A stretch of 64,000 nt of DNA from an uncultured Chloroflexia bacterium (GCA_963736805.1 CAVTQM010000063.1:18324-82323), one strand, 5' to 3'. Shown: positions 6,254 through 51,980, counted from the first letter of the stretch. The notes: generated from the sequence alone by a model not told the origin. Numbers and translations: made by a program.

Positions 6254-7354
6254 CTACCACCATCGCCTTCTGCGGTCTGCTGCCCGGTTCTCCGCCATGC
6301 GAGCCTGGACGATCCGGGAGATAGCATCTTCGGTTAATGGCGAGCCAACCAGCATTTCAGTAAAATCTTTACGACGCAAGACTACCAGCTTGACCGGTTT
6401 TTCTGGTGTTGCCCGTACGCTGGCGATTGAATTACCACCATGTATCAATTCAACCTCGCCAAAAAATTCACCTTCACCGAGCCGGGCAATGGTTACCTCT
6501 TCTTGCTTGGCGGGCTCGAGAATAATTTCCACCTCTCCCTCAGTGATCATGAAAAAGGAATCAATATGCTCTCCTTTATGAATGATCGTATTCCCAGCAG
6601 GTATTTCTTTATGCTCAAGTAAATGGGTTACCTTGAGCATTTGAGCGTGGGTAAGCAATGGAAGAGCCTTGGCAACTGTTTCATTAATGATCTTTCCATC
6701 CGAGATGATCAAGGTTCGCGTGGTTCGCTTGGTGATGGATGGGTCGTGGGTAACCAGGATGATCGTCTTGCCCTGCAAGACAAGCTGGTAGAAAAGTTCG
6801 ATGATCTCTTCCGATGAGCGTGAGTCGAGGTTTCCTGTCGGCTCATCCGCGACAATGATAGGTGGGTCGGTCGCCAGTGCCCGGGCAATTGCTGCCGCCT
6901 GCTGCTGTCCGTTAGAGACAGCTGCCGGGAGCTGGTTAGCATGCTCCTGCAACCCAACCATCTTGAGCAGCTCAAAAGCACGTTCCGGGCGTTCGGCTGG
7001 AGAAAACACGTTGCAAAAATCCATCGGAAGCATCGTATTTTCCAACAGGCTGAGCATCGGAAGCAGCTGGAAGAATTGGAAGACGATCCCCAGATTATGA
7101 CCGCGCCATAGTGAACGTTCACTCTCGGTCATTTTATAGATATTCACCCCGTTTACCAGCACCTCTCCGGAGGTCGGGTGGTCAATTCCGGTGATCATAT
7201 TAAGCATGGTGGATTTGCCGCTGCCAGATTTACCCACGATGGCAATAAACTGTCCTGCCAGGATGTCCACATCCACACCGTTCAGGCCGATGTATTCGCC
7301 CGCCGTGGTCTTGAAGCGCTTAACCACCTGGCGAAGTTGAATCATCTGGGGCAT
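6254..7354 (-). CDS. ABC transporter ATP-binding protein fused to a C-terminal cyclic-nucleotide-binding-like (CAP_ED) domain
   Basis: Walker A GKSGSGKST, signature SNGQQQ, Walker B IIVADEPT. The C-terminal ~130 aa match the CAP effector-domain pattern (IPAGNTIIHKGEHIDSFFMITEGEVEI...LGEGEFFGEVELIHGGNSIASVRA). Confidence 0.85.
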   Translation of the reverse strand: MPQMIQLRQVVKRFKTTAGEYIGLNGVDVDILAGQFIAIVGKSGSGKSTMLNMITGIDHPTSGEVLVNGVNIYKMTESERSLWRGHNLGIVFQFFQLLPMLSLLENTMLPMDFCNVFSPAERPERAFELLKMVGLQEHANQLPAAVSNGQQQAAAIARALATDPPIIVADEPTGNLDSRSSEEIIELFYQLVLQGKTIILVTHDPSITKRTTRTLIISDGKIINETVAKALPLLTHAQMLKVTHLLEHKEIPAGNTIIHKGEHIDSFFMITEGEVEIILEPAKQEEVTIARLGEGEFFGEVELIHGGNSIASVRATPEKPVKLVVLRRKDFTEMLVGSPLTEDAISRIVQARMAENRAADRRRRWW

Positions 7355-7366
7355 TAGCTACTCCGT

Positions 7367-8155
7367 TCATCGCTGCTCCTGGGCGGATACCAGGTGGAAT
7401 CCTGAATCAGCGGTGATGGTCCCGTCCGCAATGAGCAGTCGGCGTGTGAAGCGTGGGGCAAGGTTGTTGTCATGCGTGACCATGATGATGGTACGTCCCT
7501 GCTCGATCAGCTTCTCAAATATCTCGAAGATGGTTTCGGCGGTGAGCGTGTCCAGGCTGCCGGTTGGCTCATCTGCGACAATGATGGGAGGGTCATTGGC
7601 AAGGGAGCGGGCAATGGCAACCCGCTGCTTCTGCCCACCCGAGATGTAAGCTGGCAGCTTATAGGCGTGATCTTCCAGCTCCATCAATGTGAGCAGCTCA
7701 AGGGCGCGCTCCTTACTGATACGCCGCTGATAATGACCACTAAAATCCACTGGCAGCATGATATTTTCCACCAGGTTGAGCATGGGCAGCAGCTGAAAAG
7801 ACTGGTGGATGATGCCTACATTGCGACCGCGCCACACAGCCAGGGAATTCTCGCTCAGCTTGTGAATGGAGGTGCTCTTCCCGTCTGGGTCATTGAAGAC
7901 AACCTCACCGGACGTGATCATGTCTGCGCCGGTGATCATATTGAGCAGGGTAGACTTGCCTGCCCCAGACTTGCCAATCACACCCACGAACTCGCCCGCG
8001 TGGAGATCAGCCGTAATGCCCTTGAGGGCGGTGAAATCACCTGCGGCGGTATTGTATACCTTGACCACCTGGCTTAGCTGGATGAGAAGCCTGTGGTTAT
8101 TGGTTGGGGGAACTGGAAGGGAAGAAAAGTAAGAATTCATCTTTATATGCGACAC
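7367..8155 (-). CDS. ABC transporter ATP-binding protein (MacB/LolD-like), first gene of the efflux operon
   Basis: Walker A GKSGAGKST, signature SGGQKQ, Walker B IIVADEPT. Start is GTG at 8155 or ATG at 8140. Confidence 0.85.
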   Translation of the reverse strand: MSHIKMNSYFSSLPVPPTNNHRLLIQLSQVVKVYNTAAGDFTALKGITADLHAGEFVGVIGKSGAGKSTLLNMITGADMITSGEVVFNDPDGKSTSIHKLSENSLAVWRGRNVGIIHQSFQLLPMLNLVENIMLPVDFSGHYQRRISKERALELLTLMELEDHAYKLPAYISGGQKQRVAIARSLANDPPIIVADEPTGSLDTLTAETIFEIFEKLIEQGRTIIMVTHDNNLAPRFTRRLLIADGTITADSGFHLVSAQEQR

Positions 8156-8531
8156 AATAAAACTAAACCACCATTTTGACGGCGGATGATTTTACCATAA
8201 TTAAATACCTGACATCCTTATACTCACCTTAAGCAGCATTGTTTCCATCTCTTGCATAACGCTGTAGATCGGCCGGAGCTGACATCCAAAGGCTCTCTTA
8301 ATTACAGCATCACCTGGCCAGGACCATTGACTACTCGGAACAATCGAGTTCATTGATGTTAGATTACCTCCAAGAGACATGCTGAACCGAGACGCGGGCA
8401 GAGCCTACAGGCGATCCGCAATCCCTGGTAGCAGGAAACCAACTGGGTGAGTACACCCAGGAGATGTTGCATATTTGATGCCTGACCTAATAATTCATCT
8501 CATGGCGAACTGATGAAATTCTAATGTTATT

Positions 8532-8545
8532 AGAACAAATGTTCT
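8532..8545. promoter_or_regulatory. LexA operator candidate (Cheo-type SOS box, GAAC-N4-GTTC)
   Basis: Perfect 14-bp palindrome AGAACAAATGTTCT that directly overlaps the extended -10 element of the downstream cassette. Confidence 0.7.
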
Positions 8546-8553
8546 GGTATAAT
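8545..8553 (+). promoter_or_regulatory. Extended -10 promoter element (TGgTATAAT) of the GC-rich cassette
   Basis: TGGTATAAT at 8545-8553. ATG 8560 follows 6 nt later, which suggests a leaderless transcript. Confidence 0.55.
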
Positions 8554-8559
8554 CAAAAT

Positions 8560-9132
8560 ATGGACACTTATACATACCCCACTCTGAACCATTCCAGGAA
8601 TATGGATGATTCTCTTCAACTTTCCCCCCGCCAGCTTCACCTGGTGCTGGCACCGCACCGGGCTCAACGCCAGATGATGACTGTCTTGACCGCGCGCCTG
8701 GCAGTAACCAACCGGGTGCGCCTGGTGGATGCTGGCAACTGTTTTGATGGCTACGGGCTGGCACGCCAGCTGCGCCAGCGGACGTCGTCCTGGCAGGCTG
8801 CACTGGACCGGGTAAGCGTGGCACGCGCCTTCACCTGCTACCAGGTGGAAACGCTGCTGACCGAGTCGGTGGCAGACTTCTCGCCCGTGCTGGTGCTGAA
8901 CCTGCTGGACACTTTCTACGACGAGAACGTGAAGCTTTCAGAGCGGATGCGCCTGCTGGAAGTAAGCCTATCCGAGCTGCGGCGGTTATGCCGCTCAGCA
9001 TCTGTGGCGGTGAGCGCCAGTTTACCCAACCGCAACCAGCCGGGAGAATTGCTTGAAATATTGGCGGGTGCAGCCGGACAGGTATGGAGCTTTGAAGAGC
9101 CGCAGCCTGCCGAGCCATTGCGCCTGTTTTAA
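8560..9132 (+). CDS. Hypothetical protein, predicted RecA/KaiC-like core without a P-loop (ImuA-like candidate)
   Basis: The ORF-track ORF is 8524..9132. I prefer ATG 8560 (alternative 8602) because 8524-8553 is occupied by the operator and -10 element. Hydrophobic strand motifs alternate (LHLVLAP, VRLVDAGN, VSVARAF, PVLVLNLLD, ASVAVSA) and there is no GxxxxGK[ST]. The fold call is inference only. Confidence 0.5.
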   Translation: MDTYTYPTLNHSRNMDDSLQLSPRQLHLVLAPHRAQRQMMTVLTARLAVTNRVRLVDAGNCFDGYGLARQLRQRTSSWQAALDRVSVARAFTCYQVETLLTESVADFSPVLVLNLLDTFYDENVKLSERMRLLEVSLSELRRLCRSASVAVSASLPNRNQPGELLEILAGAAGQVWSFEEPQPAEPLRLF

Positions 9133-9143
9133 GGAGGTTCTTT

Positions 9144-9563
9144 ATGGGACGCACACTTCCATCTGTTACGCAAGTTTTTCTGAAAGAGCAGGAGTTTTTC
9201 CTGCGTTTCCGGCGTGCCCTGCGGCGCAGCGACCAGAAAGCACTGGACGACCTCTTCGCCGCGGCCCACAAGCACCTGGCTGCCGCAGCTTATGCCGCAC
9301 ATGCCCTGCCTTTCGAGGTCTTCCTGCTTTCGATGCTGCTGGAGGAACACAAGCAGGTGCTGCGCATGCGTTACCTGCTGAACCCCAGCGATGCGGCCGC
9401 CCTGGAGCAGCTGGAGCAGGGCGATTCCACGGCCTACCTTGATTCGCTCGCCGCAGAGGTGGAAGGGGGTGACCCTGCCCCACTTCGCACGCCTCTGAGG
9501 AGACGCAGCACCGGCCTCACCTCCTGGCCGGGTGGAGGCAGAGCCCCCGGCCTCGCCTCCTGA
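9144..9563 (+). CDS. Hypothetical small Ala/Leu-rich (predicted helical) protein with a Pro/Gly/Arg-rich tail
   Basis: 139-aa ORF with AAGGAGG 6 nt upstream. It lies 11 nt after the previous stop and 14 nt before the polymerase ATG. I recognise no family. Confidence 0.5.
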   Translation: MGRTLPSVTQVFLKEQEFFLRFRRALRRSDQKALDDLFAAAHKHLAAAAYAAHALPFEVFLLSMLLEEHKQVLRMRYLLNPSDAAALEQLEQGDSTAYLDSLAAEVEGGDPAPLRTPLRRRSTGLTSWPGGGRAPGLAS

Positions 9564-9577
9564 CCTGCTCAACTTGC

Positions 9578-11852
9578 ATGGCTGAACTCAAAGGCTGGCT
9601 GCTGGACCTGTTTGCTGATACGCACAGTGGGATTGTGCTCTGGCTGGTGGGTGAGGATGGGCAGCGCCATCGCCTGATTCAGGATTTCCCCATCACCTTT
9701 TATGCGGCTGGCGAGTCAAAACGCTTGCGGCAATTGTGGCGCTTCCTGCAGTCTCAGCCGGAGAAGGTGGAGCTGAAGCGCACCACGCGGCAGGATATCT
9801 TCTCATCCCAACCTGTGGAGGTACTGGAAGCCCGGTTGGACCAAACGGCAGCTCAGCCTAATCTTTTCCAACGTGTCGCCCGCGAATTCCCCGAGCTGCC
9901 TTATTACGACGCTGACTTGCCCATCACCACGCGCCATTCTGCCCTTTACAATACCTTTCCACTGGCACACTGCCAGGTGGAAGCAGATGAACGGGGTGCC
10001 GTGCAGGCACTGGAAGTGTTGGATACGCCCTGGGAGCTGGACCCCCCACCACCCCCTCTGCGCCTGTTGGCGATCGAGCCAGATGTTGACCCGGCACACG
10101 CAGATCCGCAGGCCCTGTACGTGCGCTCCATGAGCGTTTCCTACCGATTCAGCCTGGAACACCCCCGCCCGCTGCTGGTCAACCTGCGCGCAATTCTCCA
10201 GCGCCAGGACCCGGATGTGCTGATGACTGCCTGGGGCGACACCTGGCTGCTGCCTTACCTGATCGACCTGGCTGAAAAGTGGCGCATCCCGCTGCCCTTG
10301 AACCGTGAGCCAGGTCGGGAGGTCATCCGCAAAGATGAGCGCAGCTACCAGGCTTATGGGCAGGTGATCTACCGTGGCAAGCAGGTGCACCTGTTTGGGC
10401 GCTGGCATATCGATGGTTGCAATGCAATGCTGTTCCATGAGTACGGTCTGGAGGGGGTGTATGAGCTGGCGCGCGTCACTGCCCTGGCCGGCCAGGTGGT
10501 GGCACGCGTTTCGCCCGGCAGCGGCATTTCTGCCATGCAAATGGTGACTGCACTACGCCTGGGGATCATGGTGCCCTGGCACAAGCAGCAAGCCGAACGC
10601 CCCAAAAGTGCCCTTGAGATGATGCAGGCTGACCAGGGAGGATTAGTCTACCAGCCCCTCATCGGCCTTCACCGCGATGTGGCGGAGGTGGACTTCATTT
10701 CGATGTACCCCAGCATCATGCGCCACTTTAATATCTCGCCCGAGACGGTGGCAGACCCGAATGCTAAAGGGAGGGACCAGTACGCCCGGCTGGAGCGGGT
10801 TTCGGAGCTGGGTTTGTGGATCGACCAGGATACCGTCCGGCCTGATCCCCCAAACGCTGGCTCCCCTGCTGGACAAACGCCTGGAGCTCAAGCTGCGTCT
10901 GGCAGAGTTGCCCGCCTGGGACCCACGTCGCCAGACTTACCAGGCTCAAGCTACAGCTCATAAATGGCTGCTGGTCACCTGCTTTGGCTACCTGGGTTAC
11001 AAGAACGCCCGCTTTGGGCGCATCGAAGCCCACGAGGCGGTCACTGCTTATGGGCGCGAGATGCTGCTGCGCGCCAAGGAGGCTGCTGAAGACCTGGGAT
11101 TCACCGTGCTGCACATGTATGTGGATGGCTTGTGGGTGAAAAAGAAGGGATTGGCGGATGTGCCGTCGTTCCAGCCGCTGCTGGAGGAGATCACCACCCG
11201 CACCGGTCTGCCGATTGCCCTGGATGGAATTTACCGCTGGGTGGCTTTCCTGCCCTCCCGCATGGATGAGCGCGTGCCGGTGCCCAACCGTTATTTTGGT
11301 GTCTTTCAGGATGGCAGCCTGAAGATGCGCGGCATTGAGACCCGCCGTCACGACACGCCAGCCTGGGTGGCTAATGCGCAAAAGGAGATCCTCGATATCC
11401 TGGTGCATACCTCCGATGTGGAGGACCGCTCCACCTACCTACCCCAGGTATTAAGATCACTGCGCAGGGCGTTGACCAGGCTGCGCACATCTGGGGTGCG
11501 TGTGGAAGACTTGTTGGTCTCGCAGACGTTAAGCCGCGAGTTATCGGAATACCGCACACCCTCACCAGCTGCCCGGGCGGCGGCACAGCTGGCTGCGCGG
11601 GGTAAGCACCTGCGCCCGGGGCAGCGGGTGCGCTTCGTATATACGCTGGGTGAGCCGGGTGTGCATGCCTGGGATTTGCCCCAGCAACCTGAGCTGCGCA
11701 GCATAGACCAGGAACGCTACCGGGTATTGTTATTCCGTGCTGCCGCCACCATCCTGCAGCCGTTTGGTGTGGAAGAGGATGACTTAAAAACCCGCGTGAT
11801 TTCAAATGCATTTGATGTAACCTTTTTTGCACCGATGTATCTAAATAGTTGA
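9578..11852 (+). CDS. Family B DNA polymerase (archaeal/Pol II-like architecture) with degenerate exonuclease motifs; one frame disruption near 10828-10840
   Basis: Two overlapping ORFs (9578..10963 and 10677..11852) join into one PolB. Motif A is EVDFISMYPSIM. GLIPQTLAPLLDKRLELK follows after the frame switch. Motif B region is KWLLVTCFGYLGY and motif C region is VLHMYVDGLWV. Confidence 0.8.
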
Positions 11853-11906
11853 TGATTCAGGCAATCATTAAAAAAAAACGATCTGAGTGACAAAAAGGAG
11901 AAAATT

Positions 11907-12122
11907 ATGGGTTTCGCACGTTTCATGTCTTCATTAACTGGCCGTCTGCTCCGCATCGTGGCGGGGATTGTACTCGCCGCCCTTGGTCTGGTTGTTGTGC
12001 ACGGAACAGGTGGAATTATCCTGGCAATTATTGGTCTTGTAGTTTTAGCAGCCGGCTTGTTTAACTTTTGTATTTTTGCGCCTATATTTGGTGGACCTTT
12101 CTTGGCCAAAAATATTAAATAA
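11907..12122 (+). CDS. DUF2892 (YgaP-like) small membrane protein
   Basis: 71-aa ORF with GGAG upstream and two hydrophobic helices (LRIVAGIVLAALGLVVV, IILAIIGLVVLAAGLFNFC). Confidence 0.65.
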   Translation: MGFARFMSSLTGRLLRIVAGIVLAALGLVVVHGTGGIILAIIGLVVLAAGLFNFCIFAPIFGGPFLAKNIK

Positions 12123-12211
12123 TATTAATGCATTTTTCCATGCGATTGGTCCATTCTGTCCATCTAAAATGGATAATTAGGTTAAAATAGCATATCTTGA
12201 AGGAGGCATAT

Positions 12212-12982
12212 ATGAAACTATATGTTGGTCAGTCAGCTCCCGATTTTACCCTTCCATCCCACTTGGATAAGGATGTCAGGCTCAGCGATTACCTGGGGAA
12301 AAATGTCGTACTGGTGTTCTTTCCAAAGGCCTGGACGCCCATCTGAACAGGCCAGATCCCGTCGTACGAAGCCGATACGGGTAAGTTCGCGGGATTGGAT
12401 GCCCAGGTCCTGGGCGTAAGCATTGATCACGTTCCCTGCCTGAAAGCATGGGCAGAATCTATGGGGGGATTAATTACCCCCTGATGAGTGATTTCTGGCC
12501 ACATGGCAGGGTGGCAAACTTGTATGATGTGTTCACGAGAGAAGGAAGGGGATTCTGAGCGGGCTATCTTCGTCATTGATAAACGCGGTTATATCCGCTA
12601 TATCGATATCCATGATATCGATCATCAGCCGGATAATGATGTTGTGCTGGAAGTGCTTCGTCGGGTCGACCCCGAAGCAGCATTGCGCAGCCCGGCACCA
12701 CCTCCCATTAATCCGGATGAGATCCGCTTGCCGCATGGGGGCGTGGTGATGTACTGCACCCGCTGGTGCCCTGGTTGCCGGCGAGCGCGTGCTTGGCTTC
12801 AGGCAAATAAGGTCGAATACATTGAGGTGGATATCGATGTCACCCCGGGTGCTGCCGACCAGGTGAAGAAGTGGGCTAATGGCACCCGCACAACCCCAAC
12901 CTTCGATATCGAAGGGACCATCCTGGTGGGCTATGACGAGAAAAAGGTCGAACAGGCCATCAAGGAAAAAATAACCAGGTGA
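12212..12982 (+). CDS. AhpE/Bcp-like peroxiredoxin fused to a CxxC glutaredoxin/mycoredoxin-like domain; in-frame TGA (12344-12346) at the peroxidatic Cys position; two compensating indels at G-runs
   Basis: AGGAGG at 12201-12206. Reads MKLYVGQSAPDFTLP...VVLVFFPKAWTPI-TGA-TGQIPSYE. The frame leaves at G6 (12463-12468) and returns at G4 (12548-12551), and the intermediate frame reads GINYPLMSDFWPHGRVANLYDVFTREGRG. The C-terminal part reads VMYCTRWCPGCRRARAWL...TTPTFDIEG. Confidence 0.75.
12358..12381 (+). other. Stem-loop starting 11 nt 3' of the in-frame UGA (SECIS-like position)
   Basis: CCCGU (12358-12362) pairs with ACGGG (12377-12381). An inner CG/CG pair extends the stem, with an AU bulge and an 8-nt loop UACGAAGC. 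Confidence 0.35.
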
Positions 12983-12990
12983 GTAAACAG

Positions 12991-13025
12991 CCCGGAAGTT
13001 GAATACTTCCGGGTTGATTGTTTAT
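12991..13025 (+). terminator. Rho-independent terminator after the peroxiredoxin gene
   Basis: 9-bp stem CCCGGAAGT/ACTTCCGGG (12991-13013) followed by the T-rich stretch TTGATTGTTT. Confidence 0.7.
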
Positions 13026-13039
13026 AGGGAAGAGTCTAT

Positions 13040-13440
13040 ATGGCGATTGAATTTGTTATATCAGCATTGATTCCCGCTACTCCGCAGGAAGTTTATAGCA
13101 GCCTGGTTGAGTTCGGAAGGCCATTCCCAGATGACAGGTGGGTCAGCATCCATAAATTCGGATTGGGGAGGCGAATTTGAAGCCTGGAATGGTTATATCC
13201 ATGGGAAGAATCTTGAGCTGGAACCTGGCAAACGCATTGTTCAATCCTGGCGGACGTCAGAATTCAATGCGGATGAGCCAGACTCGCGTATAGAAATAAC
13301 CTTGGAAGCAGTCGGTGATCATGACGAAGCTCACATTACTGCACACGGATCTTCCACTGCATGGAATGCAGTATGAGCAGGGCTGGCTGGAGAATTACTT
13401 TGAGCCGATGATAGTATATTTTTCAGGTTCTACTGCCTGA
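13040..13440 (+). CDS. SRPBCC-superfamily (Aha1/AHSA1-like) protein; two frame disruptions
   Basis: MAIEFVISALIPATPQEVYSS in frame 2, then SEGHSQMTGGSASINSDWGGEFEAWNGYIHGKNLELEPGKRIVQSWR in frame 0, then LLHTDLPLHGMQYEQGWLENYFEPM in frame 1. Confidence 0.65.
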
Positions 13441-13463
13441 CTTGCGGATACCTGGGAACCTGG

Positions 13464-14636
13464 CTATACCGATTTTTTTGACTCCGCCCGGGCAGCATCA
13501 ACCCCTACGTTTGGGTTGAATTTATAACCACATCCAGCCAGGGCGCTTTCAATAGCGCTGACGGTTACCAGGATATCCGATAGGTTGGCAGCCCCCATGT
13601 GACCGATTCGGAAGTACTCTGCACGGATGGCGGGGTGCAACCCACCTGCCAGGGTCACGCCTGCCTTTGAAACACCTGCCAGAAAGTCAGTTCCATTGAC
13701 CCCTTGTGGATAGCGTGGGGCGGTCAGGGTATGGGCAGCAAACTCGGGCTTGAGCGGCACCTGGCCTAATCCAAGCGCCTGCATACCTGCCTTGCACGCC
13801 CGGCTGATGGCGATGTGGCGGGCAATACGCTTTGGCATACCCTCTGCCAGAATTTGCCCGAGGCTCACATTCAAGGCAACGATCAAATTAACCGGTGGGG
13901 TGCCGAAGTAACCCGCCTTTCGGGCTTCGTAAGCCTGCATGATGGGCAGCCAATTCGTCCAATCTGCATAATAGTTGAGCACAGGCGTGGTCCTGTTTTG
14001 GAATTTTTGCATGGCTCGTGATCCGATCATCAGCAAGGCTAACCCCGGGGGAACTCCAATTGCCTTCTGAGAAGCGGTGAGAGTCAGGTCAACCCCCCAG
14101 GCGTCCATGGGCAGTTCTTCCCCAGCCACCGAACAAACCCCATCCACAATGACCAGCACCCCATACTGCTTTCCAAGAGCAGTGATCTGCTGCACATCTG
14201 CCATAACCGCAGTCGATGTATCCACGTGGGTGATGGTCATAAGCTTATAGGAATCAGATTCCAGGGCTGATTTTACCTGTTCCAAACCCGGGCGATCACC
14301 TGGAGGTGCTGATACAAGCGTCACCTGGGCACCATAACGCTCAAGGATGGCGGCAAAGCGTTCGGAAAAGTAGCCGGTGTTGATCACCAGGGCTTTATCC
14401 CCGGGCTCCACCAGGTTGGCTCCGGCGCAGTCCATTGCCAGGGTACCTGAACCTGCCAGTACCAGCGGCTGGCCGGACGGGCTTTCGAACACCCGGCGTA
14501 ATTGTTCCAGGGCTTGCCCAAAAGTTTCGATAAAGTCAGGTGCCACGTGGCTGGTGGTGGGTTCTCCCATGGCAGACAGCACAGCCGGCTCGAATTCGAT
14601 GGGACCTGGGATCATGAGCAGGGTTCGTTTTTTCAT
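13464..14636 (-). CDS. Class V PLP-dependent aminotransferase (serine-pyruvate / alanine-glyoxylate aminotransferase family)
   Basis: Start moved to ATG 14636 (MKKRTLLMIPGPIEFEP). PLP-lysine context TASQKAIGVPPGL. Intact ~390 aa. Confidence 0.8.
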   Translation of the reverse strand: MKKRTLLMIPGPIEFEPAVLSAMGEPTTSHVAPDFIETFGQALEQLRRVFESPSGQPLVLAGSGTLAMDCAGANLVEPGDKALVINTGYFSERFAAILERYGAQVTLVSAPPGDRPGLEQVKSALESDSYKLMTITHVDTSTAVMADVQQITALGKQYGVLVIVDGVCSVAGEELPMDAWGVDLTLTASQKAIGVPPGLALLMIGSRAMQKFQNRTTPVLNYYADWTNWLPIMQAYEARKAGYFGTPPVNLIVALNVSLGQILAEGMPKRIARHIAISRACKAGMQALGLGQVPLKPEFAAHTLTAPRYPQGVNGTDFLAGVSKAGVTLAGGLHPAIRAEYFRIGHMGAANLSDILVTVSAIESALAGCGYKFNPNVGVDAARAESKKSV

Positions 14637-14652
14637 AAATAATCTCCGTCTA

Positions 14653-15051
14653 TCAGTGAATAGCTGGATCTTCGATAATAACAACACTCCCATCAATCTG
14701 CACCAGGCTGCCAGAGAGGATTTCTTGGATGGGTAACTGGTCCACACACGGGATTTCGGCAATAATACAGCCCACCGCAATAATGGTCTCGCATTCCGCG
14801 TTGAGGATGGCAAGTGGAGCGTGTCCGTTCATCTTCAGGCGGTAAAGCGTATAAGAGCCCACTGTGGAACCTTTCCCGGTGGGGAAGACCAGCACCTTCC
14901 CGGCGATACACTGGCCTTCCAGGGGATGCCCCCGCTCAACCACGATACCTGTCTCGGGGTCTACGCCACCGAAGAAGGAGATGGGTTGAGATGTAACCAA
15001 GGCTTCACCCTGGGCATTGCCCTGAAAAATGCTGCGCCCATGGAGTATCAC
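14653..15051 (-). CDS. Aconitase X swivel-domain subunit (DUF126, AcnX small subunit)
   Basis: 132 aa: GEALVTSQPISFFGGVDPETGIV...GKVLVFPTGKGSTVGSYTLYRL. Its ATG overlaps the stop of the large subunit (ATGA). Confidence 0.8.
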   Translation of the reverse strand: MILHGRSIFQGNAQGEALVTSQPISFFGGVDPETGIVVERGHPLEGQCIAGKVLVFPTGKGSTVGSYTLYRLKMNGHAPLAILNAECETIIAVGCIIAEIPCVDQLPIQEILSGSLVQIDGSVVIIEDPAIH

Positions 15052-16243
15052 TGTAATGCCAGCCTGACTACTTCATCGAAGGGGAGAAGCAGCGTCTTGA
15101 ATTTGTTCTTGGCGGAGGCATAATAACAGGCTTTGGCGCTGTCCGTTGCCATGGCGGTGAAGCGACCCTGGATGGGAGCGACAACGCAGCAGGTATCTGC
15201 GGCAAATTTTGCGCCGGCAGCCTCGATAATGTGGGTATAACCGAGCTGGTCCGCAATCTGCCTGGTGGCACGTGCAGTGGTAATCCAGAACTCTTTTTTC
15301 ACCTGCCGGCCATCCAACAGGCGCGCGATCTGCTCAATCTCATGAATGCTCAGGTGTGGGCAGCCCAGGCTGACGAAATCCACTTCCGCTGCGCTGGCAT
15401 CGTTGAGAGATTGCATGGCAACCTCAAGCTCTGGCTGGGTGACCTCGACCTGATCCAGTCGGGGCCGTGAAGGATGATGCTTCGGGTGTGACGCCCTGCA
15501 TGTGGAACAGCGCAGCTCCACCGTAAGTTGCCAGGCTGGCGCACAAGGATTTGAGGTTTTCCAATGTGGCAGATTGAATCCCCGTAATGTAGGCGATGGC
15601 TTTGGAAGCCTGGATGTGTTCTCCAATCAGCTTACCCAGCCCACCGAATTCACTGGTTTCTTTCAGGCAGGGATTGACCTGGAAGGTCAGTGTTGGGCGC
15701 CTATTTTCAGCCAGGTGATAGCCATATTCGGGGGTAAGTCCGGTGAGGGCTGATGCCAGGGCGGACGGTCCACCTTCACGGTTGGTACGGGCACCCAGAA
15801 CTGAGTTCGCGTAGCACACCGCCGAACTTTCCGACCAGGCAATGTGCTCACCAAATAGAGGTAGATTACCGATGAGATATGGGGTACAGGTGCAAGTGGT
15901 GGATCATTCCCATCCTTGAATAGGCATCCAAAACACGCTCCTGTTTCTCTGCAAAATCCGGTTGGATGCCCAGGCTGCGCCAGTTTTCGATGTCCATCCC
16001 GGCAGGGTTGAGGGTGGTTTGCACACGCACTTTACCGCCTCCGTCAGCCATCTCAGAAAGGAACTGTAGCCCGGCCTCCCCCAGGTTGTCATAACTCACC
16101 CCGGCGATCTGGACTGAACTGACTGGGATCATACGCTCAGCACCATAAATCTCGCCCAGGGCAACCAGGATTTGCATGGCTTTCCGGGTCGCTCGGCCTT
16201 GAGAGCCATCAAGCATTGCGTTTTGTTCAGGAGTAAGCAGCAT
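15048..16243 (-). CDS. Aconitase X catalytic subunit (DUF521, AcnX large subunit); two frame disruptions
   Basis: Three collinear ORF fragments (15866..16243, 15424..15819, 15048..15626). They read MLLTPEQNAMLDGSQG...VSSVQIAGVSY, then CYANSVLGARTNREGGPSAL, then VDFVSLGCPHLS...CCVVAPI. Confidence 0.75.
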
Positions 16244-16297
16244 GTTCCCTTTTCCAAGGAAATTGTAGATATAGAAAGCCGATGATAATAATAATCA

Positions 16298-17629
16298 TCA
16301 TTCCTTTATGTAATTGGTGATGTCCACCACCGGGAAAATGGCTTTATCGAAGCCCTTGCCTTGCGAAACAAGCGGCTTGGTCAGGTCAAAACCCAGCTTT
16401 GTGGTCAGGTGGGTGCCGCTCTCCGTGCGCTCGCTGGATGGGTCGAGGCTCGATCCCGTCTCTTTCGATTTGATCACCAGATCTGTGTCACCCTGGAAGC
16501 GGGTTGCCATCGCCCATTCTACTTCCAGCGGATTATAGATGTCGATGTCCTTATCCACCACGTAGACGTGTTTGCACGAGCGGTGTCCGGCAAAGGCAGC
16601 CTGGATAGCTTTTTTCCCATCATCTTCAGAGCGTTTATCGATCTGGACGATGGCGTGCAGCCATGAACAGCCACCCGGGTTGATGTTTACATCCAGGCAG
16701 TGCACGACCTCATTGACTTTTTTATAGATGGTCGGTTCGCGTGGCATGCCCATCAGCAGTTTGTGTTCGAGAGCGCCTGGCAATAGGGCATGCCATACTG
16801 CGTCATGGCGATGGGTGATGGTCTTGACCTCGAAAACAGGTTCGTTGCGTACGATGTCGTAAGTCTCGGTCAGGTCAACGAAAGGTCCTTCAGCATGCCT
16901 GCGGTCAGCGTAAACTGTGCCTTCCAATACGAATTCTGCCTCGGCGGGCACATATAAATCGACCGTTTTGGCATGCACCAGGTTCACAGGCTGGCCCAGG
17001 CAGCGTAGGGATAGCGCATTAGCAATTTCCAGCTCATCCACGCCTAGCTCCACCGAGGTTGCAGCTGCCACGAGCACCTCCGGTGGGACTCCTATGCAAA
17101 CTGCCACATCCAGGCTACCCAGCTCTTCCAGGAATCGGTCGAAGTGGCGCCCACGCACCACCCGGATGGCCATCTCGGTTTTGGAGAACTGCATGGCGCG
17201 GTGGAAGTCCAGATTCTGCCCGAGCCTGGGATGACGAGCGATGAATACCCCCGAGCTGATGTAATTTCCGCCATCCAATGCACAGTGGCGCAGGATGGGC
17301 AGGCTGTCCAGGTCGGGGTCTGTGATAACCACTTCATGGCAAGGCGCCTCAGATATCGTTGGACAAGCTGTGCGCTCCTGCAAAGCCTGCATCAGGCTGG
17401 GGATAATTTCCTTCACCTGGATGTTCAAGTAATTTGCAAAACCTGCCTTGGAGCAGAACAAGTTACCCATGACCGGAAATGGGCTTTCTTTCACATTGGT
17501 TAACATGACTGGGTGTGGCTCTAATTCTTTTAGGATCCCAGCCATTTCGTAAATCTTCGAAATAGGCGCAGACAGGGTGAGCATTTCACCCGTTTCAGTC
17601 AGTTTTTGGAGGTGAGGGCGCAGGGTCAT
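16298..17629 (-). CDS. UbiD-family (prFMN-dependent) decarboxylase
   Basis: Intact ~443 aa from ATG 17629 (GGAAGGAA 5 nt upstream). UbiD-like throughout (e.g. GGNYISSGVFIARHP, EGPFVDLTETYD). Confidence 0.8.
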   Translation of the reverse strand: MTLRPHLQKLTETGEMLTLSAPISKIYEMAGILKELEPHPVMLTNVKESPFPVMGNLFCSKAGFANYLNIQVKEIIPSLMQALQERTACPTISEAPCHEVVITDPDLDSLPILRHCALDGGNYISSGVFIARHPRLGQNLDFHRAMQFSKTEMAIRVVRGRHFDRFLEELGSLDVAVCIGVPPEVLVAAATSVELGVDELEIANALSLRCLGQPVNLVHAKTVDLYVPAEAEFVLEGTVYADRRHAEGPFVDLTETYDIVRNEPVFEVKTITHRHDAVWHALLPGALEHKLLMGMPREPTIYKKVNEVVHCLDVNINPGGCSWLHAIVQIDKRSEDDGKKAIQAAFAGHRSCKHVYVVDKDIDIYNPLEVEWAMATRFQGDTDLVIKSKETGSSLDPSSERTESGTHLTTKLGFDLTKPLVSQGKGFDKAIFPVVDITNYIKE

Positions 17630-17717
17630 AGGGTTCCTTCCGCGATGCAAAGGAATTAAAACTTATACCACTTAATTGTAACAAATGTATGGATTTCACA
17701 CACCAGTTAAGGGTTGC

Positions 17718-19784
17718 CTACTCTTGCGTGGGTAATGGTATTTCCTGCCAGGTTAACCCTCCATCCATGGACTGCTGCAAGGAGCTGTCACTCCGGCAGG
17801 TGAAGTCTGGAGAGGATTTTTCACCACTGCAACTCCCCGTAGAGGTAACAGCCCAACCCACGCCACTCGCCTGCCAACCGGACAGCGTGGTTCCCTCCGG
17901 AAGGGGTTCCAGGGCTTTAGGATACTGGCCAGGTGTGGCAGCTTGCCAGGTGACCCCTGAATCCGTGGTATGGTAATTTTGATCTCCATTTCGATTCGTA
18001 AGCCAGCCTTCCTGTCTGGAGACGTTGCGAATCGGGGCAGCCGAGGGCAGATCATATTTTTGCCAGGTACGCCCACCATCGCTGGTTTTCATCAGCACCC
18101 CAGAGTCAAATGCCTGGCTGGTTTGCTGCTGCAGCACCACCCAACCGGAAGTGGGGGAAGTAAAATGGAGCTGTAGGGGAATCCAGGTTCCATCCACCGG
18201 CAGCGGGAAATTGATAATTTCCCAGCTATCACCCCCATTCGATGAATGGTAAAGGGTCAGGGGCTCTTGGTTTTCAGATGAAAGTGCCCAGCCTTCCCCG
18301 GAGGGCAGGAAATAAGCACGCTGAACCGAGCCTGGAGAGATATCCTGCCAATTTTTCCCCTGGTTATCTGTCCAATATAATGTATCTCCCAGGATGAGCC
18401 AACCCTGGTCAGCCGACAGCCATCCGGTGTCCTGGATGGGAATTGTCTTGGGGACAACCGGGTTGCTCAACGGTTTGCTGGGTGGCATGGCAACCATGCC
18501 ATCAGCAACATCACTGTCGATATTAAACTTGATGCTACCCCAGGTCTCATTGTGGCCACCGGTATACTGGCGTAGACGCTGGTTGTTGATCCACAAGCCA
18601 TTCAGCCAGCTGATTCCATAAACGGATGCAGCCGGGTCATAAGTGTTGGTGTACCAGGAGGCGACCCAAACATCATTCGGGACATGGGCTATGGTAGCCC
18701 AATCTGCCAGGTATGAATTTCGGGATCCGTACCCCCCGGCGATATTACCCAGTTCATGCAGGCGTTCCACCCAGCCATTCATGAATGATTTGACCGTCTG
18801 GCGGCATTCGTAATTGGCTCCACCAAATGACTCCATATCATAATAAATAACCGTGCCGCCCAGGCCGTAATTGGTGAGCCGCATGGATGTGGCTGCCTCC
18901 GATGCAGCCTGAGCTTCCTGACGCCCTTCTTGATATGCAGCTGATGGGTCGCTACTCATCCGATGTTTCCAGGATGAGCAAGGTGCCTGGGGTCCCACCC
19001 AGGTGGGGACGAAGCTCCAGCCTTGCTGGTGAACTGCACTCACCCAGGTAGAATTAGCGATGGCACACCCACTGTAAAGGCTGATTCCGCCCATGTAAAG
19101 GGCATAAAAACGGTAAGGGCTATGATTCCACCAGGTTTGCATTTCAGATATCTCCGGTAGATGGCAGGCATCGAAACCTTGTGCCTGGATCACCCCGGCA
19201 TTGGGTGGGGGTTGCCCGGATGGGTCGGTGTAATGGACAATCGGTAAGTAAACATTTGGGCGGTCCGATCGTGTGAAGGTGAAGCGCATGGCACTGAAGG
19301 AGATGGTCGTGCTGAATTCTTCTTCTCCGTTCAGATCGGTCAGGTAAACAAAGCCGCTGTCATCTGCATTGAAATAATATTCACCCAGGTTTAGCCACTG
19401 GTTGCTGAGCGGATATTGGCTGAAGGAACGCATTGTCACCCCAGTTGCGTGGTGGATGGAATAATGAGCTTCGGTCGTGTCATGGTTGATGGTGCGACCT
19501 TGCCCGGCGCACCAGGTGATGGCTGAATGGGCTGCGATGTATGCCTCCACCAGGTAGTAACCTGGTTGTGGGATAACCGGACGCCATTCTGCATCGTTTG
19601 TGGAATTGGCGGGATTAGAGGCATTCAGGGTCAGATAGGCGGTATGACCGCGGTCATTATCAAATGGGTACCAGTAAGATTCAGGGCAGGTGGTGAATGG
19701 AGGGCTAAGCTCAGGATCTTCAACGACCACCTCGACAACTTGCCCGGCTGGCGACTCGGAGGATGGCAGGAGTACTGCAATCAT
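17718..19784 (-). CDS. Secreted glycoside-hydrolase-like (DUF1906/Rv2525c-like) protein with a C-terminal BNR/Ycf48-like beta-propeller
   Basis: The middle region reads GFDACHLPEISEMQTWWNHSPYRFYALYMGG...WSFVPTWVG. The C-terminal part repeats an S/T-x-D-G-G-x-T/S-W motif (SNGGDSWEI, TSDGGRTWQ, TDSGVTWQ, MDGGLTWQ). A signal-like N-terminus (MKSIRIKPQGLIKYLPFLF, ATG 19845) lies upstream in another frame, so one more indel is likely near 19790. Confidence 0.7.
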   Translation of the reverse strand: MIAVLLPSSESPAGQVVEVVVEDPELSPPFTTCPESYWYPFDNDRGHTAYLTLNASNPANSTNDAEWRPVIPQPGYYLVEAYIAAHSAITWCAGQGRTINHDTTEAHYSIHHATGVTMRSFSQYPLSNQWLNLGEYYFNADDSGFVYLTDLNGEEEFSTTISFSAMRFTFTRSDRPNVYLPIVHYTDPSGQPPPNAGVIQAQGFDACHLPEISEMQTWWNHSPYRFYALYMGGISLYSGCAIANSTWVSAVHQQGWSFVPTWVGPQAPCSSWKHRMSSDPSAAYQEGRQEAQAASEAATSMRLTNYGLGGTVIYYDMESFGGANYECRQTVKSFMNGWVERLHELGNIAGGYGSRNSYLADWATIAHVPNDVWVASWYTNTYDPAASVYGISWLNGLWINNQRLRQYTGGHNETWGSIKFNIDSDVADGMVAMPPSKPLSNPVVPKTIPIQDTGWLSADQGWLILGDTLYWTDNQGKNWQDISPGSVQRAYFLPSGEGWALSSENQEPLTLYHSSNGGDSWEIINFPLPVDGTWIPLQLHFTSPTSGWVVLQQQTSQAFDSGVLMKTSDGGRTWQKYDLPSAAPIRNVSRQEGWLTNRNGDQNYHTTDSGVTWQAATPGQYPKALEPLPEGTTLSGWQASGVGWAVTSTGSCSGEKSSPDFTCRSDSSLQQSMDGGLTWQEIPLPTQE

Positions 19785-20292
19785 CGAGGAAAAGAAAGGG
19801 AAGGTATTTAATCAAACCTTGGGGTTTTATTCGGATCGATTTCATGGGTTATCTATTCCAACTCTGAGACAAAGACTGGTTTACGAAGAAAAGAACCACA
19901 ATGACCTGCTCACTGTTGCAATTTGTTTGCCTGTTTAATAAGCAGTACATGGCTATTGATTTTACTGGGCCAGGGAATTATGCGTCAAAAAAGAGGTAAT
20001 TATATTTACAGAGAAAAAATAACCAACAGCCCAATCATTGTTCAAACCTTCCATAAACTGACCCCAAAATATGCTGGATCATCCAAAGTACATCGAAACG
20101 GAGATACATTGCACGATTTTGATATTTGAACTTGCCTGAACTTGAAGATTGGATGGAAATTGGACTAGAAGTTGCAACGTGGTTAATGAATGTTGAATTT
20201 AAGAATTGTTCAGATGAAGGAATTTTTACTACTGGTTCTTTTCAACCGGATAGGACGATGGAAAAATCATCCTGCAGGCGTAGTTTCTAGAA

Positions 20293-23125
20293 ATGGAGAA
20301 TGAGATGACAAACAAGCTAAAAAAAGCACTTCAATTAATTGCTATCATCGTGATAGGGATTTTCATGGTGGCGACCGTTGTAGGGTTTGCCCGGAACTCT
20401 TCACAAAGAGTGCTTGCTTCCGGTCCAATCCCCCCTCCGGAAGGATATCCGAAACTTTCCCTATCCACCAAGGTGGTCACTCCCACCCTGGCAAATACAG
20501 ATGGAGCGATCCTGACCTATAACCTTGAGATTCTCAACACCGGGGCATATACCGCTTCAGATGTAAGCTTGGCTGACGTAATCCCCGCCAACACGGTCTA
20601 TAACGGGGATGCCTGGTCAAGCACCCCGCCCACTCCGGTCATCACGGATGGGGTCCTGATCTGGGAGAATGGGACGGTCGGATTTGATTCCTCGGTCGTC
20701 ATCACCTTCAGCGTGACGGTCACTCCGGGGTATGTTGGAATCATCTCCAACACCGCAGTGATCAGTGACCCGATGATTACAGAACCGGTTTCGGTTTTGG
20801 CAGAGACACGTATAACCGATACGCCGATGTTCGAGATCGGTAAAACTTCTGCACCTGACCTGCCTGGCAAGAATAAACCTCTCACGTACGAGCTGGTGGT
20901 CACCAACCAGGGTCAAGCGGCAGTTGCGACACCCATAACCGTCACCGACTTCGTCCCTACGGATACAACCTTCCTCGGCGTGGGTCCGGATGGCTCATAT
21001 AACCCGCTTGATAATGTGGTGACGTGGCATCGCACGGTTGACCTTGGATTTGGCGAGACATCTGCTTTTACCTTCAGTGTGAATGTCGGGGATGTTCCAA
21101 GTGGAACGGTTATCGATAATGACAACTACCTCGTGGTCAGCCCGGATGGTATCGTTGCTGGAATGCCTTATTCAACCACGGTGATCGATCCGATATTTAT
21201 CCTCTCCAAGAGCATCTTCCCTGATCCACCTGGATCAAACACTGAGATGACCTATACCCTGACCGTGCTTAACTTAGGCTCAAAGGCGACCGACCTGGAA
21301 ATTACGGATACCGTTCCGTCTGAACTGGAATATGTACGTGGCGGTGATGATTTCACGGATGGCGTCGTTACCTGGCATCTTGCCAGCCTGGACACGCGCG
21401 AATCAGCGCAGGTTACCTTTACGGTTTATGTTGGCGATATCGCCGATATCATCGTCTTGAACGGTGATTACGGTGTGTGCAGTGCCGAAGGAGTATGCGC
21501 CTCAGGTATTCCGGTGCCGAGTTTGATCGTCGGTCCAACATTTGAAGCGACTGCCATCTTGGATCCGGTAGCTCATAAGCCTGGAGGTGGCAATGCGCCG
21601 GTTACGCCTACCTTGACCATTCAAAACTTGGGTCCGGGTAATGCATTGGACGCCACCGCCCTGGTTACTTTTGGACGTCTCAGTGTCAGTATGAACGATA
21701 TGGCTGTGATACCACCTGTCGGAACATTGGTGGATGGACCACCATGTGATGTAGCTTTCCCGTGTACAAATTTCGTCTGGACGGGCGATGTTTCTGTCGG
21801 TGAGATTATCACCTTTACCACCCTGGAAGGACAAAGCACGATCGGTGGCGATGAAGGGACTCACTATACAGCCACGGTTGTGATCACGGATGAGCTCAGC
21901 GGTTATGTTACCGAGCCCATCACTGGCACGGCCATTGGGCATGTCACCCATTATGCCAACCTGATCCCAACCAAAACCGCTCCACCTGAAATTGGACCTG
22001 GACAGACCATGACCTATACCATCCAGGTATTTGACAGCGGCTTGAGCACGGAGGAGGATCCAACTCCCACCTTGACGGAAACCGTTCCAGCCAGCGTGAC
22101 CTTGCTCAGCATCAGTGATGGTGGAAGCTCGGATATCATCGATGGAGATACGGTCATCACCTGGGAATTACCACCCATGGGTCCGGGCGATATCCTGCTG
22201 CGTTCCTTTGCCGTGGAAGTGGACCCAGACCTGGTGAGCGGGACATTGATCATCAACGATGATTATCGCACCAGCTGGTATGAGAGCGAGGTGACCGGAA
22301 CTGTATCCAATACGATGTCCATCCTGGGTGAGCCGGTCACGACCACCGTGCGTGAGGTTGGATTGATCGACTCGTTCAAAACAGTCGACCCCACCTGGGC
22401 TTTGCCAGGAACGGATACAGTTTTGACCTATGTGGTACATGTGGTCAATTCCGGTCCCGTCGAGCTGAGTGGAGTGCAGGTGAGTGATATCTTCCCATGG
22501 GAAAATACCACCTACCAGCGGGATGCGGTGGCTAGTGCGGGAAGTCTGATCAGTGATATTGTCAGCTTGGAGTGGACCGGAGATGTTGCCCCATATTCCG
22601 AGCAGCTGATCACATTCACTACCGTGGTGGATGATTTCTTCGAAGGGGTGATCACGAATACCGCCACCATCACACACACCAGTCTGAAGCAGGATGTGGC
22701 TGTCACTGCGGTGGCATATATCACCGATAAACCGGTACTTGCAGATTTCAAAGAAAGCTACCCCCAGCCCGGTGTCAGTCGGTAATCCCTTGCTTTACCA
22801 GCTCCAGGTGACCAACCTTGGGCAGCAAGCAACCATGCTGGTGGTAACCGATACCATCCCTGTGAACACGTCTTACATCCTTGGCAGCGCCAGCTCAGGC
22901 GGGCAGCTGGTGGGGGATACGCTCCAGTGGAATTTGCCTGTGCTCAACCCAGGCGAGACGCTGAAGTTTACCTTCCAGGTGATGGTAACGGGCGGAAAAG
23001 AAATCGTTAATGGCAGCTACGCAGTCCGCTGTGATGAAGGTGTGTTTGCTTCTGGGGAACCGGTGGTTACGCCTGTGTTATTCCCCGTGAATATGGTCCA
23101 CCTGCCACTCACGTTTAGATATTAG
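20293..23125 (+). CDS. Large membrane-anchored surface protein made of ~9-10 DUF11 (conserved repeat) domains; one frame disruption near 22740
   Basis: N-terminal TM helix LIAIIVGIFMVATVVGFA-like. Repeat signature recurs (LTYxLxVxNxGxxxAxxxxxxDxxPxxTxF/Y). ORFs 20293..22785 and 22694..23125 join at ITDKPVL/QISKKATPSPVSVGNPLLYQLQVTNLG. Confidence 0.8.
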
Positions 23126-34300: not shown

Positions 34301-34433
34301 ATGGTCCCCAGGCTGGATTGGGAAAATCAATCTTTTACATCTATGCGTCTGGGGAAAAACCAAAAAACTGGCTGGATGGTAGGAATAAAGCTGAGGAATT
34401 ACCAGGAGATATTTTTATTGGGAGATCAAGCAA

Positions 34434-36291: not shown

Positions 36292-36990
36292 TATTTTGGT
36301 TGTTGAAGACGATACCTCACTGCGTGAGACATTAACATATAATTTTTTTACGACAGGATTATAGTGTACAGGCAGTCGGTGATGGTCGTGACCGCCTGGA
36401 AACAGCTCGGAATATCTGATCCTGCCGGGTCTGCTGACCTGATGCTGCCCGGGATGGATGGTTTTGAAGTATGCCGTATCCTGCGCCAGGAGTATGAATA
36501 TCCCCATCCTGATCTTGACTGCCCGCGATGACGAGATTGATCGGGTGATTGGCTTGAAATTGGAGCGGATGACTACATCACCAAGCCCTTCAGCATGCGG
36601 GAGTTAATGGCCCGCGTGAAAGCTCACCTGCGGCGGGTCGCCTCATTCGCCAGGAGGTCGAGTGCAACTCAAGAAGTGACCTCACATGAGATACTCACCT
36701 TTGGAAACCTGACTATAGATCTCTTCAGGCGCGGGGTTTCGCCGGATGGGATGCCCCTTGCTTTAAAACCGAAGGAATATGACCTGCTGATTTTCCTTGC
36801 ACAGCATCCAAGGCAGGCGCTTTCACGCCAGTTCCTGCTTGAAGGCGTGTGGGGACGGGAATTTGGTGGTGGCACCCGCACGGTGGATGTACACGTGCAT
36901 TGGTTGCGTGTAAAGATTGAAATCGACCCGTCTAAACCAAAGCGGATTGTCACCATGCATGGTTCTGGATATCGATTTAAGGATGATGGA
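36284..36990 (+). pseudogene. OmpR/PhoB-type response regulator; several frame disruptions (one at the T7 run 36344-36350); 3' end uncertain
   Basis: [48 protein letters not shown] and DDYITKPFSMRELMARVKAHLRR are found across three frames. The winged-helix part LTIDLFRR...TRTVDVHVHWLRVKIE...GSGYRF is intact. Confidence 0.75.
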
Positions 36991-36991
36991 T

Positions 36992-38736: not shown

Positions 38737-38755
38737 TCAAAGCCATTAATATTTA

Positions 38756-38789
38756 GCCCGCAGGTCAGCCCGTGGGCATTTTTGTTTTT
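38756..38789 (+). terminator. Terminator candidate after the kinase gene
   Basis: GCCCGC (38756-38761) pairs with GTGGGC (38772-38777, one G-U pair), followed by ATTTTTGTTTTT. Confidence 0.5.
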
Positions 38790-38840
38790 ATAGTTCAGAA
38801 TGATCTTACAACCCCTGAGGCGCTCATCTGAATTCTAACG

Positions 38841-38914
38841 TTACATTTGTTATTAACAATACGATTACAAATCAATTGTAATTTCTTAACTAAACATTGT
38901 CTGAACGTTAAACA
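38841..38914 (+). promoter_or_regulatory. Array of ~11-bp-phased TT(A/G)(A)CA-like hexamers (Pho-box-like) upstream of pstS
   Basis: TTACAT 38841, TTAACA 38853, TTACAA 38865, TTGTAA 38876, TTAACT 38886, TTGTCT 38897, TTAAAC 38908. The spacings are 12, 12, 11, 10, 11 and 11 bp. Confidence 0.55.
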
Positions 38915-38971
38915 ACCAGAGTATCCTTCAATAATGAAAAAGATAAGAATTATTATTTGGAGGAAAAAGAA

Positions 38972-40029: not shown

Positions 40030-40162
40030 AGTTATCATCTTCCCTGCTTGGGAAGTATTGATAATTCCCCGGGTGTTGGAGCTGGATCTAAAGCCTCAAC
40101 ACCCTTGCCTGTAAGGTAGGTAATGTCTGCTATCAAAAAATTAAGTAAAATTGAAGTCCGAA

Positions 40163-42337: not shown

Positions 42338-42345
42338 AATATAAT

Positions 42346-43140: not shown

Positions 43141-43154
43141 TATTAGGAGAATTT

Positions 43155-51978: not shown

Positions 51979-51980
51979 GC

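Follow-up and report, generated by a model that had tools for sequence, protein, structure and literature searches.

A UbiD-aconitase X gene cluster of an uncultured Chloroflexota bacterium as a probable copy of the archaeal mevalonate cassette

Genes for a two-subunit aconitase X (AcnX), a UbiD-family decarboxylase and a class V aminotransferase, placed side by side in a bacterial genome, raise the question of which pathway they serve. Such a locus lies in a 64,000-nt stretch of DNA from an uncultured Chloroflexia bacterium (GCA_963736805.1, CAVTQM010000063.1:18324-82323), here called the window and numbered from its first nucleotide. Open reading frame (ORF) calls place four genes on its minus strand: a UbiD-family gene (17629-16298; 443 aa, with the Pfam domains UbiD_N, UbiD and UbiD_C), the AcnX large subunit AcnX-L (DUF521; 16243-15048; Pfam AcnX), the small, or swivel, subunit AcnX-S (DUF126; 15051-14653; 132 aa; Pfam AcnX_swivel_put) and an AGXT-type class V aminotransferase (14636-13464; 390 aa; Pfam Aminotran_5). 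A first-pass annotation of the window had recognized these four co-directional genes, their families, the spacers of 54 nt and 16 nt and the 4-nt start/stop overlap between them, in agreement with the ORF calls and with Pfam and NCBIfam. Two details are corrected: the overlap reads GTGA (GTG start of AcnX-S, TGA stop of AcnX-L) and not ATGA, and AcnX-L, described as one gene, spans 1196 nt, a length not divisible by three, and runs through three frames with two +1 frame changes. The two AcnX genes are putative subunits of phosphomevalonate dehydratase (PMDh). Together with the UbiD gene they very probably form a bacterial copy of the archaeal mevalonate cassette, which leads from mevalonate 5-phosphate (MVA5P) to isopentenyl phosphate. 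This assignment to archaeal-type core enzymes, one of two alternatives offered in the first-pass annotation, is well supported because residue landmarks, the phylogenetic placement of UbiD and synteny conserved with archaeal mevalonate operons point the same way.

In the proposed route, AcnX-L and AcnX-S would form a heterodimeric [4Fe-4S] PMDh that converts (R)-mevalonate 5-phosphate into trans-anhydromevalonate 5-phosphate. The UbiD-family enzyme, carrying prenylated FMN (prFMN), would then act as anhydromevalonate phosphate decarboxylase (AMPD) and yield isopentenyl phosphate, which an isopentenyl phosphate kinase (IPK) encoded elsewhere in the genome would convert into isopentenyl diphosphate (IPP). 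The enzyme activities, the cofactor use and the remainder of the pathway are predicted here from homology. The reference systems for PMDh and AMPD are those of Aeropyrum pernix, Methanosarcina mazei and Thermococcus kodakarensis (Hayakawa 2018; Watanabe 2021, PMC8184944; PMC10040528); the archaeal mevalonate pathway itself was defined in A. pernix (Hayakawa 2018, as cited in later papers).

The type of the AcnX pair provides the first line of evidence. Adjacent genes for a DUF521 protein of about 400 aa and a DUF126 protein of about 130 aa correspond to the two-subunit organization of type IIb AcnX. When its reading frame is reconstructed, AcnX-L scores 343 bits against the type IIb AcnX of T. 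kodakarensis (TkAcnX, 7cnr_A) compared with 212 bits against hydroxyproline dehydratase, and AcnX-S scores 136 bits against TK1248 (7cnr_B) compared with 80 bits; AcnX-S also passes, barely, the DUF126 equivalog model NF003046 (164.7 bits, cutoff 163). In TkAcnX, MVA5P is contacted by A47, G48, V49, S50, N53, N79, E129, S130, S131, K361 and Y365 of the large subunit and by L27, S62, T63 and V64 of the small subunit (PMC8184944). All 11 contact or catalytic residues of the large subunit are identical in the window protein, as are S62, T63 and V64 of the small one, which brings the total to 14 of 15 landmarks. The remaining position, Leu27 in TkAcnX, is occupied by Phe in AcnX-S; Phe is also found there in 24 of 29 Chloroflexota sequences, and archaeal sequences carry Tyr (19 of 22) or Phe (3 of 22). 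Across 44 Chloroflexota and 30 archaeal homologues, the MVA5P landmarks are near-invariant. In AcnX-L, all 12 positions counted as landmarks of MVA5P contact or catalysis are conserved. The iron-sulfur ligands follow the same pattern. In A. pernix PMDh they are C122, C297 and C356 at sites A, 1 and B, with no cysteine at site C (PMC10040528); the window triad is C119, C294 and C351, with Val353 at the site C position, and this arrangement recurs in the same 44 and 30 homologues. AcnX-L is 47% identical to the large subunit of TkAcnX. Apart from the substitution at position 27, the window pair differs from TkAcnX in a 9-residue insert around DIENWRSLG in AcnX-L, absent from the Thermococcus protein.

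These residues also bear on a different assignment, in which the AcnX pair would act as a hydroxyproline dehydratase and the UbiD protein as a decarboxylase of the furandicarboxylate or hydroxybenzoate type. Hydroxyproline dehydratase (AtAcnX) has the superfamily fold, the contacts to the carboxylate and the C3 hydroxyl and the catalytic serine in common with the window enzyme, but its pyrrolidine-contact residues are replaced. Asp203, Trp35, Thr72 and Ile206 of AtAcnX correspond to Ala, Phe, Val and Ser, and these substitutions agree with TkAcnX at three of four positions, the exception being Trp35, for which TkAcnX has Leu and not Phe. The window protein further has its cysteine at site 1, not at site C, as in type IIb enzymes, and its genes stand beside UbiD, not among genes of hydroxyproline catabolism. 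The hydroxyproline dehydratase model NF051439 is matched at 62-96 bits per AcnX-L piece, against a cutoff of 700. Taken together, the AcnX pair carries the landmarks of archaeal type IIb AcnX and none of those specific to hydroxyproline dehydratase.

The UbiD homologue supplies the second line of evidence. It reaches 364 bits against TIGR00148 (cutoff 245), has the three-domain architecture of the family and retains the N-x3-HR motif, the glutamate of ELEIANAL and the EGPFxD segment; all specific UbiD equivalog models of NCBIfam are far below their cutoffs. It is 45-64% identical to archaeal UbiD proteins encoded beside PMDh in mevalonate operons, and an active-site loop of the form EGPF[VIL]D[LI]T is common to these proteins and to the window protein (EGPFVDLT). 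The closest solved structure is that of HmfF, a 2,5-furandicarboxylate decarboxylase (PDB 6h6v; 244 bits, 37% identity), which shares the three-domain architecture and the N-x3-HR and glutamate motifs for metal and prFMN. In HmfF, however, the loop reads EGPFGEYP, and its gene is not linked to AcnX. A furandicarboxylate-type function for the window protein could draw on this structural match and on the many JGI records that label its homologues '2,5-furandicarboxylate decarboxylase 1'; the low identity to HmfF, the missing clade motif in HmfF and the failure of the specific equivalog models speak against it. Combined with the properties of the AcnX pair, these observations leave the hydroxyproline and furandicarboxylate assignment with a negligible probability.

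Placement of the UbiD protein agrees with the mevalonate cassette. In a neighbour-joining tree limited to UbiD sequences chosen as neighbours of AcnX-L, with HmfF as the one outgroup, the Chloroflexota proteins, including that of the window, form a single clade nested among archaeal PMDh-linked UbiDs and next to those of Bathyarchaeia and Asgard archaea, with HmfF far outside as a distant outgroup. Because the Chloroflexota sequences form one clade nested among archaeal ones, the pattern is compatible with one transfer from archaea into an ancestor of a large group within Anaerolineae and Chloroflexota. Such a transfer, if confirmed, would bear on the spread of isoprenoid pathways from one domain to another. 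A similar picture came from an HMMER search with the window UbiD that covered all of 1.84 billion cluster representatives: where they carry names, the clusters that come next, at 44-50% identity, belong to archaea (Diapherotrites, Marsarchaeota, Methanosarcinales, Methanothrix and Euryarchaeota), with one exception from Elusimicrobiota. The Marsarchaeota cluster bears the UniRef name 'Anhydromevalonate phosphate decarboxylase', and several JGI records give close homologues the same label. The Elusimicrobiota-labelled representative, P0259, is 41% identical to the window UbiD; further bacterial phyla may have AMPD-like genes, too.

The third line of evidence is gene order. GTDB species genomes were scanned with an AcnX-L alignment, and the counts of loci given here rest on the best 80 matches, a sample. 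Among them are at least 49 Chloroflexota loci from metagenome-assembled genomes (MAGs) labelled Anaerolineae, Anaerolineales, Thermoflexales or Brevefilum, with AcnX-L identities of 62-85%; the closest genome among the matches listed is MFD00709.bin.3.105, with 85-88% protein identity. Archaeal loci follow at 55-63% and come from Asgard archaea, Bathyarchaeia, Iainarchaeia, Micrarchaeota and Altiarchaeota. A UbiD gene, whose product is 45-88% identical to that of the window, lies immediately upstream of AcnX-L in 43 of 45 Chloroflexota and 21 of 23 archaeal loci, and AcnX-S lies immediately downstream in 41 of 45 and 29 of 29, respectively. The genomic association of UbiD with PMDh genes holds for the window and for its relatives, and the linkage is conserved in most of the loci from both groups. 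Because the same order recurs in dozens of genomes, the arrangement is not due to chance. AcnX-S could not be detected anywhere in three loci of 17-21 kb (L008, L009 and L015, from Anaerolineaceae, Anaerolinea and Anaerolineales MAGs) that do carry UbiD and AcnX-L.

Comparison with archaeal operons shows both what is retained and what is altered. The archaeal order is GHMP kinase (mevalonate kinase, MVK), UbiD, AcnX-L, AcnX-S, amino-acid kinase (IPK), FMN_dh (IDI2) and polyprenyl synthase (GGPPS). The window shares with these systems the two-subunit AcnX, the cysteine triad at sites A, 1 and B, the UbiD partner immediately upstream and, with many of the operons, the order of the cassette genes, at the identities to archaeal MAG homologues stated above for AcnX-L (55-63%) and UbiD (45-64%). 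It differs in that the host is a bacterium of the Anaerolineae (Chloroflexota), that MVK, IPK, IDI2 and GGPPS are not adjacent to the cassette and that an aminotransferase follows it. Memo-like genes (PF01875) also recur beside archaeal mevalonate operons, in seven of the archaeal loci; the window has one at 60947-61840 on the minus strand, 43 kb from the cassette.

Several points weigh against the assignment to the mevalonate pathway. The selection of sequences for the UbiD tree is one of them, and the UbiD comparison was made without the characterized AMPD sequences of A. pernix, M. mazei and 'Ca. Promineifilum breve'. A search of the PDB with the window UbiD found no AMPD structure. Genes for HMG-CoA synthase (HMGS), HMG-CoA reductase (HMGR), MVK, IPK, IDI2 and UbiX are not found in the 64-kb window, either among the larger ORFs or with tblastn probes. 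Archaeal probes for MVK, IPK, IDI2 and GGPPS matched neither the window nor any of the Chloroflexota loci, and probes for UbiX and for an MVD-like protein had none in the 64 kb, in line with the earlier statement that the window lacks ubiX. In its present form, the AcnX-L sequence gives no full-length translation product. Finally, some Anaerolineae (Anaerolinea thermophila) are documented to rely on the PMD route instead, and an MVD-like gene adjoins the cassette in some relatives; the cassette may therefore be redundant or have another role.

A UbiX-type flavoprotein, of the prFMN synthase family, is encoded directly after AcnX-S in seven Chloroflexota loci (L031, L035, L040, L042, L048, L049 and L050). 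The MVD-like gene, of the PMD/DMD family, adjoins the cassette in three (L030, L038 and L048). In the Anaerolineae bacterium isolate Ch10 (L030:8700-12571) it overlaps the end of AcnX-S, which gives an operon of UbiD, AcnX-L, AcnX-S and the MVD-like gene, flanked by BacA upstream and RseP downstream. With this gene inside the cassette operon, both known routes from MVA5P to isopentenyl phosphate may coexist in some Anaerolineae.

An archaeal cassette in Chloroflexota is not without precedent. The archaeal mevalonate pathway has been reported in the Chloroflexota bacterium 'Ca. Promineifilum breve' (Kanno et al. 2024, AEM 90:e0110624, as cited in PMC12547664 and PMC13001223), and a 2026 review states that some Chloroflexota encode the archaeal-type pathway. 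The first-pass annotation held that the bacterial AcnX enzymes with two subunits characterized so far act as hydroxyproline dehydratases and have no link to UbiD; the report by Kanno et al., as relayed by the two citing papers, makes this view obsolete. The PMD route of haloarchaeal type is found in other Chloroflexota, among them Roseiflexus and Anaerolinea thermophila. With 'Ca. Promineifilum breve', as it is described in those citing papers, the window shares a Chloroflexota host with homologues of archaeal-type PMDh and AMPD, but its lineage is a different, uncultured group of Anaerolineae. The window therefore adds another carrier to a published phenomenon and opens no new question. What is new is how broadly the cassette seems to occur among Anaerolineae, together with relatives such as L030 in which a PMD/DMD-like gene has joined the cassette operon. 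The recovery of at least 49 species-level genomes suggests that the cassette is widespread in Chloroflexota. Kanno and colleagues reportedly demonstrated PMDh and AMPD activity. The present locus would place one more uncultured Anaerolineae lineage among the bacteria with the ATP-saving archaeal route from MVA5P to isopentenyl phosphate, and it offers a pointer to mesophilic organisms as a supply of PMDh and AMPD for engineering.

The two frame breaks of the large-subunit gene were compared with close relatives. The gene is divided into three ORF pieces in three frames, 16243-15866, 15819-15424 and 15626-15048, which match positions 1-115, 143-261 and 262-399 of the Pfam AcnX profile, respectively. 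Four metagenome relatives are syntenic with the window over approximately 6.3-25 kb: L001 and L002 (both ENA ERZ25039461), and L003 and L004 (both JGI). Alignment with the closest of them, L003 (93.7% DNA identity), locates two insertions of 1 nt on the minus strand, neither in a homopolymer: an extra T at about 15903 (GAATGA[T]CCACC) for the first break and an extra G at about 15466 (CTTCAC[G]GCCCC) for the second. With these two bases removed, the gene has no internal stop and encodes 397 aa, 95% identical to the L003 protein. The repaired gene differs from that of L003 by 37 synonymous and 18 non-synonymous codons, with synonymous changes predominating in each of the three segments, and an intact AcnX-L of 397 aa is present in all four relatives.

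Frame breaks of this kind are not confined to AcnX-L. Compared with L003, single-nucleotide insertions outside homopolymers occur in at least eight syntenic neighbouring genes, including those for a DUF11 protein, a glycoside-hydrolase-like protein, AHSA1 (fragment at 13107-13376), glutaredoxin, a family-B DNA polymerase (PolB; plus strand, split into 9578-10963 and 10677-11852) and a DUF8156 protein. Further split genes elsewhere in the window encode SbcC/Rad50 (49416-50339 and 50203-51978) and a peptidase S9 (34999-35844 and 36019-36291), and there are fragments of a histidine kinase, a response regulator and an ABC permease. The affected regions are 6800-23000, 34400-43900 and 49400-52000, and in the aligned part of the window a frame break interrupts the coding sequence roughly every 1.3 kb. 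The sequence looks like an unpolished long-read assembly. Because the same type of insertion splits many other genes of the window, the breaks in AcnX-L are read as sequence errors; most probably both are sequencing or assembly errors in an error-rich sequence, and the real gene would be intact. Programmed +1 frameshifting was also considered and rejected, since insertions of the same type affect many unrelated genes and the frame is continuous at both sites in the relatives.

The breaks could instead mark AcnX-L as a genuine, recently inactivated pseudogene and the step as decaying, for instance after a PMD-type decarboxylase had taken over. The two frame-breaking insertions themselves, the MVD-like gene beside the cassette in some relatives and the PMD documented in Anaerolinea thermophila would fit such a loss. 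It is nevertheless unlikely: besides the shared insertions in PolB, SbcC/Rad50, peptidase S9, AHSA1, the glycoside-hydrolase-like and DUF11 genes and other unrelated ones, AcnX-L has no other lesion and an excess of synonymous changes throughout, UbiD and AcnX-S are intact, and the large subunit is whole in every relative sampled. Apparent pseudogenes in this insertion-rich sequence should accordingly not be over-interpreted.

The fourth gene of the locus, that of the aminotransferase, is not accounted for by the mevalonate route. Its product has the Aminotran_5 fold (PF00266), and among PDB entries it scores highest against the alanine:glyoxylate aminotransferase of yeast (2bkw, 253 bits) and the serine:pyruvate aminotransferase of Sulfolobus (3zrp, 250 bits), in keeping with the AGXT type; JGI homologues are named alanine-glyoxylate, serine-glyoxylate or serine-pyruvate transaminase. 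No NCBIfam equivalog cutoff is reached by the protein. Residues 189-191 form an SQK motif, the lysine of which we take to be the pyridoxal phosphate lysine of the class V family. The first-pass annotation had proposed a survey of the linkage to the cassette, and among the best 80 loci, the 42 from Chloroflexota that could be evaluated include only 8 with an aminotransferase gene near the cassette, and the 25 from archaea include none. The eight loci and the window make up one subclade of the UbiD tree, and in two loci (L008 and L015) the gene is on the opposite strand, convergent, right after AcnX-L. Because it is confined to a single subclade, the linkage is regarded as derived and lineage-specific. 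A scan of the region for promoters and terminators gave nothing informative.

This distribution is relevant to the other alternative raised in the first-pass annotation, namely that dehydratase, decarboxylase and aminotransferase were jointly co-opted for a different, undescribed pathway of amino or oxo acids. The position of the gene would suit such a pathway: it shares the strand of AcnX-S and lies 16 nt downstream of it, nothing resembling a terminator is seen in the gap, and the linkage is kept through a subclade in which UbiD identity falls to about 70%. Many metagenome aminotransferases are 77-92% identical to that of the window, and several of them are encoded on large contigs that also carry UbiD homologues. 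Even so, a new pathway of this kind is highly improbable. The window AcnX matches TkAcnX at every residue that binds the 5-phosphate, the carboxylate and the C3 hydroxyl, 34 of 42 Chloroflexota loci and each of the 25 archaeal ones lack the linkage, and the aminotransferase is an ordinary member of the AGXT family by its PDB and NCBIfam matches.

A further reading is that, in the Anaerolineae subclade of the window, the aminotransferase gene stayed directly behind the AMPD-PMDh cassette owing to a functional coupling between them. Isoprenoid precursor flux might be linked to glyoxylate and serine metabolism, the substrate of the cassette in this lineage might not be a mevalonate derivative, or the cassette might stand beside a PMD-type enzyme, as in L030, and have a function distinct from making IPP in bulk; coupling in any of these forms is considered very unlikely. 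Judged by its matches and its distribution, the protein appears to be a separate transaminase of the glyoxylate, serine or alanine type located behind the conserved cassette and not belonging to it. It is probably co-transcribed with the cassette without a role in the pathway, and positional co-transcription of an unrelated transaminase is the simplest reading.

Other features of the window lie apart from the mevalonate cassette. Near its 5' end, at 200-297 on the minus strand, Rfam identifies a c-di-GMP-II riboswitch aptamer of the GAG variant (43.2 bits; gathering score 40). It sits downstream of an ORF for a dynamin-like GTPase (417-2153) on the same strand, and the gene it regulates would therefore be located beyond the 5' end of the window. 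At the opposite end, positions 62001-64000 have a GC content of 0.36, compared with about 0.52 elsewhere, and may be foreign DNA; this segment contains an ORF of 528 aa (62313-63899, minus strand) with no Pfam match. In the region 8524-11852 (plus strand), the family-B DNA polymerase gene mentioned above (about 757 aa when intact) follows a DUF8156 gene and a gene for a 202-aa protein of unknown function, and this set of three is kept in the lineage, in the window and in the syntenic parts of L001-L003.

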